Under the pieces are notes generated by a model. It was not told the origin of the DNA and did no database searches. It was given only the letters and a program-made list of their open reading frames with translations. Positions 161 to 45,098 of a stretch of 64,000 nt of DNA are shown piece by piece. Numbering within the stretch: position 1 is the stretch's first letter; every line of letters begins with the position of its first letter. The DNA is taken from contig ML992510.1 of NCBI GenBank assembly GCA_010093995.1, positions 1,181,339 to 1,245,338 on the forward strand, written 5' to 3'. The DNA comes from Elsinoe ampelina (taxonomy: Eukaryota). The translations under genes and the position numbers were made by a program.

Positions 161-847
161 CTATGCCTGACCCGGGAGCGAGTTCCAGCCAGTATCCTTG
201 CCAGTCCTCCTCCGGGCAGCTTCAGGCTCGGCATCAGCGTCCCTCTTCCTGGCCTGACCAGGCAGCGAGTTCCACCCGGTGTCCTTGCCCTGGCGTCTGC
301 GCCTAGCATCAGCCTCGGGCTCGGCATCGGGCTCAGGGAGAGCCTCCCTCTTGCGAGCCTGACCGGGGAGAGAGTTCCAGCCGGTGTCCTTGCCAGTTCG
401 GCGGCGAGCAGCCTCTGGTTCGGCGTCGGCGTCGCGCTTGCGAGCTTGGCCGGGGAGAGAGTTCCAGCCGGTGTCCTTGCCCTGACGGCGGCGGCGGGCG
501 TCGGCTTCTGGCTCGGCCTCTGGCTCGGGGAGAGCGTCGCGCTTGCGAGCCTGGCCGGGGAGAGAGTTCCAGCCGGTGTCCTTGCCAGTTCGGCGGCGAG
601 CAGCCTCTGGCTCAGCGTCGGCGTCGCGCTTGCGGGCCTGACCTGGAAGGGAGTTCCAGCCAGTGTCCTTGCCTTGGCGGCGGCGGCGGGGCTCAGCCTC
701 GCGCTTGACCATCTCGGGAACCTCGAAGGTCATGTCGTCGGCATAGTCGACATTGTCGATGGCGGAGGCGGAATCTTGGAGAGGGACAGCAACGACGGCT
801 GTGGTGTAGGCGAGGATCGCGGCGGCGATGAAAGCGTTGAACTTCAT
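161..847 (-). CDS. Alpha-factor-like pheromone precursor / Kex2-processed repeat protein (228 aa)
   Basis: Signal peptide MKFNAFIAAAILAYTTAVVA, then an acidic pro-region. Six copies of [Q/T]GKDTGWNSLPGQA are separated by KR (Kex2) sites and X-A/X-P dipeptide spacers (Ste13 type). The W-x-x-L-P-G-Q core resembles Pezizomycotina alpha pheromones (ppg1 type). Confidence 0.85.
   Translation of the reverse strand: MKFNAFIAAAILAYTTAVVAVPLQDSASAIDNVDYADDMTFEVPEMVKREAEPRRRRQGKDTGWNSLPGQARKRDADAEPEAARRRTGKDTGWNSLPGQARKRDALPEPEAEPEADARRRRQGKDTGWNSLPGQARKRDADAEPEAARRRTGKDTGWNSLPGQARKREALPEPDAEPEADARRRRQGKDTGWNSLPGQARKRDADAEPEAARRRTGKDTGWNSLPGQA
164..690 (-). repeat. Coding tandem repeat: three 192-nt (64-aa) dimers of Q-type and T-type peptide units
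   Basis: Near-identical blocks at 361 and 553 give a 192-nt period. The 3'-terminal dimer is synonymously diverged. Confidence 0.9.
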
Positions 848-1157: not shown

Positions 1158-1165
1158 CTCAATAG
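1158..1165 (-). promoter_or_regulatory. Putative MAT1-1-1 (alpha-box) binding site CTATTGAG upstream of the pheromone gene
   Basis: Plus strand CTCAATAG reads CTATTGAG on minus, about 310 nt upstream of the ATG. A variant CTTATTGAG lies at 1382-1390 and a TATAAG at about 943-948 (minus). Confidence 0.5.
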
Positions 1166-2082
1166 GGTTTCAGATGCGTTGGCTCGCCACTCAGCATCCT
1201 CACGATCTGCCTGCCATGCGATACAGCCAGTGTTTGTCTGGGCAAAGGTCAAAGGAAGGGCGAAGCGGACTCGCAGCGTGCCTGTAGAGTCTTGCATGTA
1301 TCTTTCGATATCGTAGCGGGCAGTGTGTGGTGGCTTTGGTGTGGTATGCGGCAGGAAAGGCCAAGATGTCCGAAAGTAGTCCTCAATAAGAATTTCACCT
1401 GCGCCCTCACAAAGGCCGATCACGGCTCAGTAATGATCCTCGCGCGTCGCCTGCGGTCAATGAATTTTGGGTGCGAAAGTCTGGAGGTTGGCCCAGAACG
1501 TAGCATTGTAAAGACTTCCGACCCAGACGGTGGTTATGTGAAGCTTTGACTGTGTGGCCGCTTCCCAACAATGAGCGGTTGGTTAACGCTCAGCTCCACC
1601 CGTCATAGATCATGCCAGGTATTCTTGTGTACTGAGTATACGCAAGGCAAATGATGGGTATGAAGAACGCATGTTGGGATGTTCAGGTAGGAAGAAGGCT
1701 AAGTGACACGGATGTTGTCGGGTGAAGTGGAGGAAGATCAAACGAATCTGACAAGATGTGATATTGTCCTCAGACTGATTGACCCTGCTCACGCATTGTG
1801 ATATATATTCTGCAGGGGTCTTTTCCAGTTCCCTGCAGGTGCGAGTATGAATGCCACGGAGTCATGTCCGCGTCCTCAACAAGGATGTAGAAGAGTCGAC
1901 GTGAAAGTGCATAAGGTATGCGGCTCAAACCTGGATAACGGTAGTCTGCGCCAAGACAACGGCAATGATCGGCAAGAGAAGGGAAAGGCTCGAAGGTTTA
2001 CCTCTCCAAAGCTTTTGCTTGCCCACTTTTCTCGACAATCAACACCTCAATCGCACCCCTAGAACTTGTCGAATTCCCCATA

Positions 2083-3399
2083 ATGTTGTCGCGAAGTAGC
2101 CAGAGGACCATGGCGGTATGAAATATTCCCTATATATCCCAATTGCCATGTATACTCACACGAGACAGTTCCTTCTCCGCGGCGCTCAGCCGGCCATCCG
2201 AACAGCCACTGGGCCTTCTCAGATTACGCGATGTATGGCAGCACAAAGAGATGGGATTGTCAAGTGCAGCAGACTAATTATGGACAGCGATGGCGACGAC
2301 TATCGGCAGCGACATTTTCAAGCCAACCAAGTTTGGCGGCAAATACACCGTCACTCTGATTCCAGGTCAGTCGACACGAATGGGAGCATGAGTCGGGTCT
2401 GATGGTCATATAGGTGACGGTATTGGTGCTGAAGTGTCCGAGTCTGTCAAGGAGATCTTCAAGGCCGACAATGTGCCCATCGAGTGGGAACAGGTTGACG
2501 TTACTGGTATGATGACTGGAGACAAGCACTCTGAGGAGCTCTTCCGCGAATCGATAGCCTCCCTGAAGAGAAACAAGTTGGGTCTCAAGGGCATTTTGCA
2601 CACACCTGTCGAGCGATCTGGTCACCAGTCATTCAACGTCGCCCTTCGACAAGAACTCGACATCTACGCTTCTATCGTCCTCATCAAGAATATCCCCGGA
2701 TACGAGACACGACACAAGAACATTGATCTCTGCATCATTCGTGAGAACACCGAGGGCGAATACTCCGGTCTCGAGCACTCTTCAGTCGCTGGTGTCGTCG
2801 AATCCCTCAAGATCATCACCCGTGTCAAGTCTGAGCGTATTGCCAAGTTCGCCTTTGCTTTCGCTCTCGCCAACAACCGTAAGAAGGTTACCTGCATCCA
2901 CAAGGCCAACATCATGAAGCTTGCCGATGGTCTGTTCCGCAACACGGTCAAGAAGGTCGGTGAGGAGTATCCCACCATTGAGACCAACGACATGATCGTA
3001 GACAACGCCAGCATGCAGTGTGTTAGCCGGCCACAACAATTCGACGTAATGGTCATGCCCAACTTGTACGGAGGTATTCTTTCCAACATCGGCGCTGGTC
3101 TTGTCGGAGGTCCTGGTATCGTACCAGGCTGCAACATGGGACGTGACGTTGCCGTATTTGAGCCTGGTTGCCGTCACGTCGGTCTCGATATCAAGGGCAA
3201 GGACCAAGCCAACCCGACCGCACTCATTCTCTCTGCAAGCATGATGCTTCGTCATCTCGGTCTCGATGACCATGCCAACAGAATCTCCAAGGCTGTCTAC
3301 GATGTGATCGCAGAGGGAAAGACCAGGACAAGAGATATGGGAGGCAACTCTACGACGCACGAATTCACTAGGGCCATTCTCAATTCCATGGAGGCATAG
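2083..3399 (+). CDS. IDH1: NAD-dependent isocitrate dehydrogenase subunit 1, mitochondrial (exons 2083-2115, 2169-2232, 2288-2365, 2414-3399)
   Basis: Three GT-AG introns restore KFGGKYTVTLIPGDGIG. Also IIRENTEGEYSG, HKANIMKLADGLF and FEPGCRHVGLDIKG (IDH1 type), plus an Arg/Ser-rich presequence. Confidence 0.93.
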
Positions 3400-27463: not shown

Positions 27464-28717
27464 ATGAATTACAATCAACAAACACCCTTCGAATGGGCAA
27501 ACCTCTGGGATGTCGTCGACGACAACGTTCGTGCCAGCATCAACCCTACTGAAGGCGCTGACGGTCGTCGCGGCCGAGGTGGCAGACGCGGTGGCCGTGC
27601 CACTCAGCCTGATGAGTTCGCCGACTATTGGGCAAGTGCCTTTCGCGAGTGGGGTGCTCCATGGATGAACCTGCCAATGCATGGTGGTCCCCCTCGTCGT
27701 GGTCCTTACCCACCACCTCCAGGCCGCAGTGGCCCACCCCCACCACCACCACCTCCTCCTCCAGGTCATGAAGGCCCTCACCCTCCCCCACCTTGTCATC
27801 ATGGACCTCCGCCACCTCCACCGGGTCATGAAGGTCCTCACCCTCCCCCACCTGGTCATCATGGACCTCCGCCACCTCCACCAGGCCCTCACCCTCCCCC
27901 ACCCTGTCATCACGGACCTCCGCCACCTCCGCCAGGCCCTCATGGCCCCCCTCCTCCTCGCGACGACGACGATGGCCCAGTCGATCCTCCTTCCAGGTCT
28001 CCTACTCCACCCACTCCACCAACGCCGCCTGAAGAGCTCCCCGAGTATCCTGGACTCCCCCACGAACACCCCCACCATGGTCCTGGCGGCCCTCATCACC
28101 CGCGCCATTACCACCGCCACCACCCCCGCCACGGCAAAGGCAAAGGCCCCGAAGGTCACCACGACCACGACAAGTCGGGCGAACCCAGCCACCACCCCTG
28201 GCACCACCCCGGCTTCCCCTTCGGCCACCCAGGCCCCGGCCGCCGCGGTCGTCGCCACCGGGGCACCTTTGGCGGACCCCGCGGCCCCCGCGGCGGGCCC
28301 TTCGGATTCGAGTCCTGGAATCAAATGTTCCCCGACGGCGTCTTCGCCGAGGACAAGAAGACGGACACTTTCGAGCCGCAGTATGAAGTCTTTGACAAGT
28401 CCGACAAGGTCGTCGTTTTTGTTTCCCTGGCCGGCGCGAAGAAGGAGAATGTCGACGTCGCTTACGATGCGCCTTTGCATTCGTTGACGATTTCTGGGGT
28501 CGTGACGAGGCCCGAGGAGGTTGATGAGGAGATGTTTGCTCTCAGGACCGAGGGGAATAGAGATGTGGGGTATTTTAGGGTCGTGGTTGATTTGCCTGCT
28601 TTTTGGGGTGTGGTGGAGGATATCAAGGCGAAGATGGAGGATGGGGTGTTGAGGGTTGAGGTGGGGAAACCGGGGGATGAGGATTGGGAGGAGGTGAGGA
28701 AGGTCAGGGTCGAGTAG
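27464..28717 (+). CDS. Hsp20/alpha-crystallin-domain protein with a long Pro/His/Gly-rich N-terminus
   Basis: C-terminal FEPQYEVFD...VSLAGAKKENVDV...LTISG...GYFRVVVDLP...IKAKMEDGVLRVEV and a terminal V-x-V motif (KVRVE). Confidence 0.82.
   Translation: MNYNQQTPFEWANLWDVVDDNVRASINPTEGADGRRGRGGRRGGRATQPDEFADYWASAFREWGAPWMNLPMHGGPPRRGPYPPPPGRSGPPPPPPPPPPGHEGPHPPPPCHHGPPPPPPGHEGPHPPPPGHHGPPPPPPGPHPPPPCHHGPPPPPPGPHGPPPPRDDDDGPVDPPSRSPTPPTPPTPPEELPEYPGLPHEHPHHGPGGPHHPRHYHRHHPRHGKGKGPEGHHDHDKSGEPSHHPWHHPGFPFGHPGPGRRGRRHRGTFGGPRGPRGGPFGFESWNQMFPDGVFAEDKKTDTFEPQYEVFDKSDKVVVFVSLAGAKKENVDVAYDAPLHSLTISGVVTRPEEVDEEMFALRTEGNRDVGYFRVVVDLPAFWGVVEDIKAKMEDGVLRVEVGKPGDEDWEEVRKVRVE
27745..27960 (+). repeat. Coding tandem repeat, 51-60 nt units encoding PPPPPG(HEG)PHPPPP[C/G]HHG
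   Basis: CCCTCCCCCACC...CATCA[T/C]GGACCTCCGCCACCTCC recurs at about 27781, 27841 and 27892. Confidence 0.85.
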
Positions 28718-42599: not shown

Positions 42600-44435
42600 T
42601 CAGATCGCAACATAGAAAGGCAAAACCTTCGGATCCAAACACCTCCAAATAAACGGCATCCCATCACTCAACCCATCCCTATCAAACTGCCTCCCCCTAA
42701 CCTCCTCACTAAACGCCGCCATCTCCTCCCTAAACTTGCCCGCCGCCTTCTGCACCACCCCATTATACCTCTTCAACCTCAACTCATCCTCAAACATCTC
42801 CATCGTCGTCCTGTCTCCGTCTGCGAAACTCGGCCTGCCAAAAGCAGCTGCCAACTGGATACTCCCGATCGCTTGCCCTACCGTTGGCAAGGCAGCCAGG
42901 ACATCCTTCTCTGTCATGCCCTTCTTCTTGGGCAGAGGTTGGTAGAAGGCGGTGTTGTGCCACGGCACCACGAGTTGGGCGAGGGAGAGGTCATTGGTGT
43001 TGAGCACGCCATGCGCAACGGATGCGAGGTAAGCGTAATGCGTGAGGATCTCGACGAGCTCGTCGCGGCGGGTGAGGGATTTGGGGAAGAGCTGGACTTG
43101 TGCTGGACCGGAGCACTCGGCGATCCAGTTCTGAAGCTCTTCGTCTTGGAGGAGGGCGTTGTCGGAGAGGTAGTAGGAGCGGACGAAGGAGCGCATAAAG
43201 GTTCGGATGGGCTCAACGATACGTTTGCCGTCGGTGTAGAAGGGGAGGTGCTTGAGTGCTGGTCCGGGGGAGTCGATCAGGCCACGCGAGCGGAGTTCAG
43301 GCTCGAAGTAGTGAGATGACCAAGAGGTGGCGCCCTTCTTGAAGAGATTGACCGAGTATCGACCTGCTTCGGCGCCGGTCCAGGCGAAGACGCGATCGAC
43401 TGGTCCGCCTGGGTTGATCAGATTGCGGAGAGCAGATTGACGAATGGCAAAGTTCTGAAGACCAAGTCTGGAGAGGATATTAAAGATCGGGTGGGCATTT
43501 GACATTGTCCGCAGAGAGGCGAGGTAGGTTGCATCGATGACTTCATGGGTGTACAGGAGGTGGAAGAACTGGCCAAACCATAAATCGTTTTGGTTGAAGA
43601 GCATTTTGGCGTAGAGCCAGTCATACGTCGAGTCGAGAGGAGTGTAGATCAACTCAGAGCCTGCGTTGGGCCTGATCGCCAGGGGAAGAAAATTACCGGA
43701 CTTTGAGTGGATGTAGAAGAAGGCATCACAGGCGGCGGCGAAGCGACCTGCGGTCAGATTCAGAGAACCTTGATCCCGGTAGTCGACATAGAAGAGGCGG
43801 TGATCCTTGAGCAGCTCTTCTTGTGTGCTACCCGTAAGCTTCTGCACAATGCTGTCATCAACTTCAAAGGCAGGTGTCTCGAATGCAGGGAGACGTCTGA
43901 CTGTGAAAGGCTGGATTGACAATCTTTCCATGGAAAAGGTCAAGTCGTCGGTACCATTCTCAATCACTCCTGGGAAGGGTCCGTCTGGTAATGACGTTAC
44001 CCAGTCGCCTTCGTACAGCTTGAAGAAATCTTCTATCCGGTCAAACCTTTCCGTGGGCTTCGGAATGTCCGGTCGCGATGCAGTAAGATTGGCTTCTATC
44101 GAGATGTTGATGACAATTGGTTTGTGCTCTCCGATGAGATCGGCATACTGCAAATCAGCAAAAGCTTTTGCGTCTGCTGAGTTGACAATGTCTGGGTAAG
44201 GAAGGCCACCAAGACCATCGGTAATGATGTCTGGTCCGTACGGGAAAGCATCTCGTCTTGTGTTGACTTGTGCCTGTCGATTCTGTGTGTTCGCATAGCC
44301 GATGGCTGGGGCGAACGGTGTAGTATTGGTCGGTCCAATCTCGAAGAAGGGTATGAGGGATGGCGAGTTCACTAGCTTCTTTGTAGGATCGAGGTCAGTC
44401 GCCAGGAAATTGGCGAGAATGAGTTGTGACTTCAT
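42600..44435 (-). CDS. Lipoxygenase, fungal Mn-LOX-like lineage; start uncertain
   Basis: FSMERLS, LFYVDY, FLPLAI, W..AKMLFN.ND, metal ligands HLLYTH and HGVLN, and C-terminal PFYVAI. Confidence 0.9.
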   Translation of the reverse strand: MKSQLILANFLATDLDPTKKLVNSPSLIPFFEIGPTNTTPFAPAIGYANTQNRQAQVNTRRDAFPYGPDIITDGLGGLPYPDIVNSADAKAFADLQYADLIGEHKPIVINISIEANLTASRPDIPKPTERFDRIEDFFKLYEGDWVTSLPDGPFPGVIENGTDDLTFSMERLSIQPFTVRRLPAFETPAFEVDDSIVQKLTGSTQEELLKDHRLFYVDYRDQGSLNLTAGRFAAACDAFFYIHSKSGNFLPLAIRPNAGSELIYTPLDSTYDWLYAKMLFNQNDLWFGQFFHLLYTHEVIDATYLASLRTMSNAHPIFNILSRLGLQNFAIRQSALRNLINPGGPVDRVFAWTGAEAGRYSVNLFKKGATSWSSHYFEPELRSRGLIDSPGPALKHLPFYTDGKRIVEPIRTFMRSFVRSYYLSDNALLQDEELQNWIAECSGPAQVQLFPKSLTRRDELVEILTHYAYLASVAHGVLNTNDLSLAQLVVPWHNTAFYQPLPKKKGMTEKDVLAALPTVGQAIGSIQLAAAFGRPSFADGDRTTMEMFEDELRLKRYNGVVQKAAGKFREEMAAFSEEVRGRQFDRDGLSDGMPFIWRCLDPKVLPFYVAI

Positions 44436-45098
44436 TGCGTTGGAGTGTGGTGTCAAAGGATTTGAACAGGAAGAGGGCAAACGAAGGCATGTATATGCAC
44501 TTATACAAACCATACTGTACCGCTCTTGCCTTGAGCTAAGCTTTCGATACCAGAAATCTCGAGGCGTCAGCACGGGTAGCGGAACAAGACCATGTGATGG
44601 CTGTGAGGGCAGACTATGCTGAAATGGAAAAAGGTATGAGGTCAAAAGGCGCACAGAAGCTCTCCATGACACAGGCCAGCCATAGCTGCCGCGACATGGC
44701 CCACCAAACGCCGTCTCCGATGCAGTCACTCTCGATTCGAGGTCGACTTTTGGGTCAGCTAAAGATGAAGTTTGAAAAGAACAGGCAAAGTTGGTGGGAT
44801 GGCCTGACAGCTGAGCCCACGAGCTGGCTTGAAGGTCAACCAATCAGAGCCCCGAAATGGGACTGCGCCGTCCGAAGGAGTCAGCCTTGTCATGTCAAGG
44901 TGGTAATTTTGGGTCACTGGCTTGTATTGCAGAAATTCGAGCCTTTCTGCTGCAAGGCAAAGGTGAATGCGGCGTAGTAGACTGCTCGAAACATTTCCAC
45001 CTTGAGCCGCTCATTGGCTGACATAATCTAGGCATTTCGACATCGCTTGCTCATATTCGACAATGATGCCTTGCTATGAGTCGAATCTATGTACATGT

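Follow-up and report, generated by a model that had tools for sequence, protein, structure and literature searches.

Two subgroups of alpha pheromones have been described in the Dothideomycetes: all non-Pleosporales pheromones were reported to resemble a two-Cys type, and a Cys-free type with the motif PYG[LM]P[IV]G was found in 13 Pleosporales species and described as unique to them (Le Marquer 2019, PMC6339444). The published pheromone of Zymoseptoria tritici (Mg) is GNSFVGWCGAIGAPCA (Billerbeck 2018, Supplementary Table 1, PMC6265332), and the same work contains Cys-free alpha peptides of Tuber (WTPRPGRGAY), Capronia (GLSYWKGVNDGGSS) and P. nodorum (KYNGWRYRPYGLPVG). The F. oxysporum pheromone needs its GQ turn and is inactive in the form with the Cys2-Cys9 disulfide (PMC7289986), so the disulfide is not needed for signalling there. 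Upstream of the precursor gene, the A. fumigatus MAT1-1-1 protein binds TTATTGAG at -315 of ppgA, with the consensus YYATTGA[GTC] (PMC8022922).

An intact open reading frame in a 64 kb window of the Elsinoe ampelina genome (the window being the whole stretch of DNA that was analysed, 64,000 nucleotides) is very likely the alpha mating-pheromone precursor gene, that is the ppg1/ppgA orthologue, of this species, which belongs to the Myriangiales within the Dothideomycetidae. The frame runs from 847 to 161 on the reverse strand and encodes 228 amino acids in a single exon, with no need for an intron. At the level of sequence, the orthology is supported by the best database match, by the position beside IDH1 and by the presence of a single copy in the 28.27-Mb genome; a second genome match of the precursor (L002, E 1.14) was discarded as noise. 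The features of the locus are as follows.

161 to 847, reverse strand: probable alpha-pheromone precursor gene (ppg1/ppgA orthologue), 228 amino acids, single exon, single copy
788 to 847, reverse strand: putative signal peptide, about residues 1-20, hydrophobic N-terminus aligned with relatives, predicted cleavage site
689 to 787, reverse strand: acidic pro-region, with KR at residues 48-49 as the first Kex2 site and EAEP as Ste13 spacer
635 to 688, reverse strand: repeat 1, Q type, RRRR head and 14-mer core
548 to 601, reverse strand: repeat 2, T type, ARRR head and 14-mer core
443 to 496, reverse strand: repeat 3, Q type
356 to 409, reverse strand: repeat 4, T type
251 to 304, reverse strand: repeat 5, Q type
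164 to 217, reverse strand: repeat 6, T type, with the stop codon (161-163) immediately after
1158 to 1165, reverse strand: MAT1-1-1 (alpha-box) consensus site CTATTGAG, -311 from the ATG, predicted to be bound
1382 to 1389, reverse strand: second MAT1-1-1-type candidate site TTATTGAG, -535 from the ATG
2083 to 3399, forward strand: IDH1 (NAD-isocitrate dehydrogenase subunit), Pfam Iso_dh, predicted start codon, divergent landmark

The precursor consists of a hydrophobic N-terminus, an acidic pro-region, a KR site and six repeats parted by RKR and acidic spacers. Residues 3-20 are hydrophobic, as read from the sequence and from an alignment with seven relatives, and form a putative signal peptide. 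The 228 residues contain no Cys, so the cysteines that surround the turn in the two-Cys subgroup are absent, and the repeat core GWNSLPGQA differs from the Pleosporales motif PYG[LM]P[IV]G. The PGQ turn is present in the repeats, in line with the description of alpha-factors as short repeats (typically 9-14 amino acids) with a PG/GQ turn (PMC10569646). The DNA forms a tandem array (Tandem Repeats Finder score 718, period 192, 2.8 copies) that is the Q+T dimer present three times and is not due to chance. The six 39-nt cores differ from each other at 1-7 nucleotides, all of these differences are silent and the encoded 13 residues are identical, which suggests that the peptide sequence is under selection.

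Genome-wide, a codon pattern for a basic or related residue followed by R-[DE]A-[DE][AP] gave 100 matches versus 71 for a control pattern, and the sole same-strand cluster of the basic and Ste13 pattern was this reading frame, with four matches in a list read by eye. Pfam returned no true family for the precursor or five of its relatives, the matches being repeat-driven noise only. The top ESM Atlas matches scored 0.84-0.86, the third being an MF_alpha cluster, which provides a lead. Expression was approached with contigs from 4 of 24 listed runs: run X4 gave low-depth pieces over 522-989, runs X5 and X12 gave none on the reading frame, and run X3 covered positions 1-380 with a contig extending toward FCF1 and, in addition, the intergenic region at low depth.

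Processing was scripted as a cut after KR, removal of X[AP] and C-terminal K/R trimming, with a variant that adds a cut at RR. The script predicts two 18-mers, RRRRQGKDTGWNSLPGQA and ARRRTGKDTGWNSLPGQA, with three copies each in strict alternation, and after the additional RR cut two 14-mers, QGKDTGWNSLPGQA and TGKDTGWNSLPGQA, again with three copies each; the XA/XP register is exact in all six spacers. These results reproduce the six alternating Q and T repeats and the two peptide lengths given in a preliminary description of the locus, which had also noted a last copy ending at the stop codon and the absence of Cys, both seen in the reading frame. The significance it attached to two alternating isoforms is not supported, since the alternation follows from the duplicated 192-nt dimer and the repeat order in Sphaceloma is T,H,H.

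The 14-mers are slightly favoured as the dominant form, with Kex2 also cutting the RR run. RR counts as a listed Kex2 site, the first site in S. murrayae is RR, and Aureobasidium precursors carry RR after every internal repeat. Furthermore, the Z. tritici peptide was published without the basic run (Billerbeck 2018, PMC6265332), and inside the yeast Ste2 pocket the efficacy is set by the N-terminus of the ligand (PMC8942848). The Arg-headed 18-mers may well be the main or a co-secreted form instead: the Ste13 register is exact in 6/6 spacers here and in the 2/2 scored in S. murrayae despite substitutions, and two relatives (P0004 and P0005), locus L095 and one copy in locus L040 have no clear dibasic site at this point, with the Trp still about 11-12 residues from the end of the spacer.

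A phmmer search over 1.84 billion representatives gave 18 matches. The best was PNS17877.1 of Sphaceloma murrayae (P0002), a direct orthologue with 77% identity and three repeats of the form RRRR[TH]G[AK]DTGWNSLPGQA, in the order T,H,H and ending at GQA. NCBI/UniRef gives it the name "Protein EFR3", apparently a mis-annotation. P0004 and P0005 are Cys-free relatives with GWDSLPGQ and GWGSLPGE, respectively; one repeat of P0005 (KFTCHRYDIGWSSLPGE) carries a single Cys outside the ancestral Cys positions, the protein being otherwise Cys-free. Eight of the 18 matches (P0006-9 and P0011-14) are two-Cys precursors with basic heads, for example RRIRPGFCGAPGSAC and KGGKTGFCGVPGASC, and the remaining ones are unrelated repeats or other precursors. 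The heads of the two-Cys relatives are of the KKRR-, RRIR- and KKKK-type, with a net charge of +2 to +7 where scored with the head. The proposal that a polybasic head was added at this locus is thus not supported, and neither is the view that the absence of Cys is unusual in itself, Cys-free alpha peptides being published for Pleosporales, Tuber and Capronia.

A profile built from eight Cys-free precursors retrieved 19 proteins among 8000 scored candidates. These include proteins of Aureobasidium pullulans, melanogenum, subglaciale and mustum, a genus of the Dothideales, with repeats of the AFSSWGKKY...GWGDAPGQVY-type, as well as the Cercospora and Zymoseptoria tritici precursors at weak E-values. 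With PNS17877.1 as query, only the protein itself was recovered among 1676 candidates, and no orthologues from E. australis, E. fawcettii or Myriangium were among them. Three precursors have unusual repeats. P0034 (Paraconiothyrium brasiliense) combines a two-Cys repeat, NCRFPGMPCS, with a Cys-free one, WHSGFRRLPGQPIG, and may represent a transition from one pheromone type to another; P0010 likewise combines repeat types; and in P0024 (Aureobasidium subglaciale) the repeat ends in GWGDDSGMVY, so that the PGQ turn of the other Aureobasidium proteins is replaced.

When the Z. tritici precursor (P0037) was used to search the genome, the only match was this locus (E 4.2e-7), a match that could partly reflect shared spacer composition. 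A Leotiomycete two-Cys precursor gave no genome match, and since it missed even this gene, the genome searches are of low sensitivity. A search for a Cys-type ppg1 elsewhere in the genome, a check proposed in the preliminary description, found none with these two queries of limited sensitivity, and a permissive WC..G..C pattern at the DNA level gave no useful signal (612 matches versus 439 for the control).

The precursor and IDH1 are arranged head to head, with FCF1/RPB11 on one side and ERV26/APE2 on the other, and the flanking genes of the precursor are housekeeping genes. IDH1 itself is a synteny landmark outside the pheromone system. Its 5' part contains three short GT-AG-type introns within 2034-2412, which contigs from X3 and X5 span. 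Elsewhere in the window, 27464-28717 on the forward strand is a 417-aa Pro/His/Gly-rich reading frame with tandem repeats at 27752-27942, the C-terminal part of which we take, by eye, to be HSP20-like, and 42600-44513 on the reverse strand is a 637-aa reading frame that presumably, again by eye, resembles a secreted lipoxygenase.

The conservation of this arrangement was examined in the best 80 of 537 IDH1 loci from metagenomes, 47 of which were informative, having 2.5 kb or more of upstream sequence. In 16 of these 47 loci (11 of them distinct), the strand opposite to IDH1 carries a precursor upstream of it, with a signal peptide and KR/Ste13 repeats and with the ATG 1.2-2.5 kb before the IDH1 match; in the window this distance is 1.66 kb. 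No precursor was found at any other position in those loci. Nine of the 16 precursors are two-Cys, one of them with RCGHPGQPCG, which is a Leotiomycete alpha-factor (PMC10569646), and seven are Cys-free. An exact-sequence search with 10 of the locus precursors gave no match in the collection. The precursor of locus L057 equals A. pullulans P0022 exactly over the first 100 residues, and loci L040 and L041 keep the order RPB11-membrane protein-FCF1-precursor-IDH1-ERV26. The other 31 of the 47 informative loci among the best 80 contained no detectable precursor, including the sister-group loci L037 and L038, so the IDH1 synteny is not universal. Looser rules applied to re-examined negative loci still gave no precursor nearby, and an extra match in L054, a long unrelated reading frame, was dropped.

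In a tree of IDH1, a single-gene and therefore weak basis, the window, all Cys-free loci and L046 fall into one clade with a support of 0.77. This clade neighbours a group that contains the two-Cys loci with basic heads, and L046 is too short to score. In loci L083 and L084, the two-Cys precursor located 2.0-2.9 kb upstream of IDH1 is spread over two overlapping frames, probably because of an intron or a frameshift. Loci L055 and L077 have clusters of MAT1-1-1-type motifs 1.2-1.8 kb upstream of the IDH1 match and no detected precursor, possibly reflecting a divergent, spliced or lost pheromone gene. The Aspergillus gene numbers, as we presume them to be, suggest that ppgA lies beside idh1 there as well; this was not counted as evidence.

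Of 12 distinct precursor promoters, counting that of the window, 7 contain the exact 8-mer CTATTGAG within 800 bp, as against 3 of 272 control windows. None of the four distinct promoters of Cys-free orthologues contains the exact 8-mer, only looser sites. At least two loose sites were present in all 12 precursor promoters versus 15/272 control windows and 1/47 upstream regions of other reading frames (Fisher p 4e-14, which is optimistic because the loci are related). A single exact 8-mer is in itself unremarkable in the 64 kb window, where two occur and 1.45 are expected.

The genome contains one intact STE2 match, a candidate for the cognate receptor, which is identical to the E. ampelina Ste2 at 372/372 positions apart from a 36-codon in-frame intron. 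There are one kexin P-domain gene and two DPPIV_N genes (the Ste13 family). The suggestion that the repeats encode a divergent Ste2 ligand thus gains support, on sequence grounds, from synteny, best match and promoter. A complex prediction for Ste2 residues 1-290 with precursor residues 199-228 gave weak support, with a score of 0.49 versus 0.02 for the best control, a result that may stem from likeness to solved Ste2 structures; at least 64% of the contacts agreed between runs and the partner pLDDT was at least 47, with a method uncalibrated for peptides. Of 78 solved pairs, 51 attained the mark used, as did 2 of 108 mismatched pairs; at scores of 0.60 or below, it was attained by only 5 of the 78 solved pairs and by all four passing mismatches. 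The prediction adds little to the pheromone case, since peptides are outside its calibration and yeast Ste2 structures exist.

The extracellular charge of the Ste2 is -8 versus -6 to -9 in Aspergillus/Penicillium (segment borders by eye); the receptor is thus no more acidic, and a basic ligand is not favoured. As a marker for Elsinoaceae this charge was rejected, as it gives no separation from Aspergillus. The N-terminal segments of Ste2 (P0039-P0042) have charges of -6 to -10 in Elsinoe/Sphaceloma versus -1 to -3 in Aureobasidium. A MAT1-2-1-like HMG gene is located on contig C13 of the genome (G000) at about 700.7-702.2 kb (L120, L127 and L128) and adjoins APN2-like and APC5-like sequence, all labels being given by eye. 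The alpha-box family had no match in the genome in a search that included no positive control. The strain is probably MAT1-2, and the two results fit heterothallism.

If the gene works like its counterparts in yeast and Aspergillus, it would be switched on by the MAT1-1-1 alpha-box factor acting at the upstream ATTGA-core sites, and its pre-pro-protein would pass to the ER and Golgi, be cut after KR by Kex2, be trimmed at RKR by Kex1 and lose its XA/XP spacers to Ste13. The products, six unmodified linear peptides with the end GWNSLPGQA, would be secreted and would use their PGQ turn to activate the single Ste2 of MAT1-2 cells. The peptides probably derive from head-G[FW]CGxPGxxC, the two-Cys type of the Dothideomycetidae, by replacement of the first Cys position with N, G or D and loss of the second Cys, giving a Cys-free form common to Sphaceloma, Aureobasidium and further relatives. 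Since the Pleosporales motif is described as unique to the Pleosporales, the Cys loss here was probably independent.

In three Leotiomycetes, the alpha-factor was not expressed in a mating-type-specific way (PMC10569646), which counts against the proposed regulation and speaks for a ppg1 orthologue by descent that now acts mainly as an autocrine, quorum or chemotropic signal, or is partly decayed, instead of attracting mates, a possibility that has been raised for fungi presumed to be asexual. The same direction is indicated by Aureobasidium, which has the same peptide type and is homothallic with no sexual form described (PMC4227064), and by F. oxysporum, where the alpha-pheromone acts also in quorum sensing (PMC7289986). 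Such a change of function is nevertheless improbable in E. ampelina, where the predicted MAT1-1-1-type sites are retained at a conserved distance and the MAT1-2-1-like gene beside APN2, with no alpha-box match, fits heterothallism; autocrine and mating roles are, moreover, mutually compatible.

It is very improbable that the gene encodes a non-pheromone Kex2-processed repeat protein yielding a cationic membrane-active or cell-penetrating peptide similar to candidalysin or Rep1, as the preliminary description had considered. The net charge of the 18-mers (+3/+4) would suit this function, and Trp and Arg mediate the binding of the F. oxysporum pheromone to anionic lipids, a peptide that also affects growth independently of Ste2 (PMC7289986). 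However, the 14-mers have a net charge of 0 and the charge of the orthologue peptides (-1 to +4) is not conserved. The candidalysin and Rep1 products are amphipathic and hydrophobic, whereas all four peptide forms have a hydrophobic moment of at most 0.16, a GRAVY of -1.05 to -1.97 and a hydrophobic fraction of 0.17-0.22, and the Ste13 signature, the synteny and the promoter sites all indicate ppg1. A precursor of a cyclic RiPP of the ustiloxin/dikaritin type, suggested by a Kex2-processed repeat protein in a genome with UstYa/DUF3328 genes, can be dismissed as extremely improbable: contig C10 carries none of the 10 UstYa matches listed (a lower bound), the neighbours are housekeeping genes, the core has no Tyr, no DUF3328 mark is given for the S. 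murrayae orthologue (Umemura 2020, PMC7329392), and ustiloxin/dikaritin precursors are reported to be without Ste13 spacers (Le Marquer 2019, PMC6339444).

With the alpha pheromone as the preferred reading, the mechanism itself is textbook, and the gene is more widespread and less odd than in the preliminary description. The apparent novelty lies in a third type among the Dothideomycetes, GWxx[LMA]PG[QE], Cys-free and at the ppg1 position, in the Elsinoaceae (Myriangiales) and Aureobasidium (Dothideales). No published account of this type was found in a literature search that covered few subscription papers, and the Cys-free form common to the black-yeast relatives seems to have gone unrecognised in published pheromone catalogues. 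Aureobasidium proteomes were within the set of Le Marquer 2019 (PMC6339444), of which Table S2 or Fig. 6 may list the type, and the available part of the Aureobasidium genome paper reports Ste2 and Ste3 and no precursor (PMC4227064). A likely alpha pheromone can thus be named for E. ampelina, the sexual stage of which is poorly understood (PMC8295512), and for Aureobasidium too.

It is conceivable, if rather unlikely, that the Myriangiales/Dothideales ancestor lost both Cys and thereby gained a redox-insensitive signal without the disulfide off-switch of Fusarium, and that the all-Arg head of the Elsinoaceae created an 18-mer/14-mer processing switch. If so, the Arg-headed 18-mer (Ste13 route) would be surface-sticky and short in range, and the neutral 14-mer (Kex2 route) would be diffusible and differ from it in Ste2 efficacy. 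The group offers a natural test of whether pheromone cysteines act as a redox switch, new peptide/GPCR pairs for yeast sensors and a ready peptide for mating tests. The combination of IDH1 adjacency and the MAT1-1-1 motif provides a practical route to divergent pheromone genes missed by BLAST.

Among the known systems, the two-Cys Dothideomycetidae precursors (Zymoseptoria tritici MYCGRDRAFT_110066 with the core GNSFVGWCGAIGAPCA, Baudoinia with GWIGRCGVPGSSC, and Cercospora) share with this gene the signal peptide, the KR and XA/XP spacers, a polybasic run after the spacer (KRRR, KKRR), the G[WF] followed by an xPG/xxG turn and, in L036, L042 and L044, the IDH1 adjacency. In the Z. tritici precursor, GNSFVGWCGAIGAPCA is preceded by a Ste13 spacer and then a KRRR/KKRR run, the layout also seen here. 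Unlike these precursors, the present one has N at the first Cys position, no second Cys and a peptide end of PGQA, and lacks their long C-terminal Cys-containing region. The Cys-free pheromones of the Pleosporales are of the same class, linear, with a basic N-terminal part and a Kex2/Ste13 precursor, but differ in the core motif (PYG[LM]P[IV]G; P. nodorum KYNGWRYRPYGLPVG). The closest catalogued proteins, S. murrayae PNS17877.1 together with E. australis PSK43727.1 and TKX20333.1, form KEP type 365, catalogued without a pheromone mark (Umemura 2020, PMC7329392). Compared with the Aspergillus/Penicillium PpgA/Ppg1 type (WCHLPGQGC), a 9-mer that starts at Trp, the peptides here are longer (14-18 amino acids), with a hydrophilic arm on the N-terminal side of the Trp, and contain no Cys, as is also true of the S. 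cerevisiae alpha-factor. The LPGQ/PGQ turn is shared with both of these pheromones, and the predicted MAT1-1-1 site about 310 bp upstream of the gene corresponds to the site at -315 in A. fumigatus ppgA.
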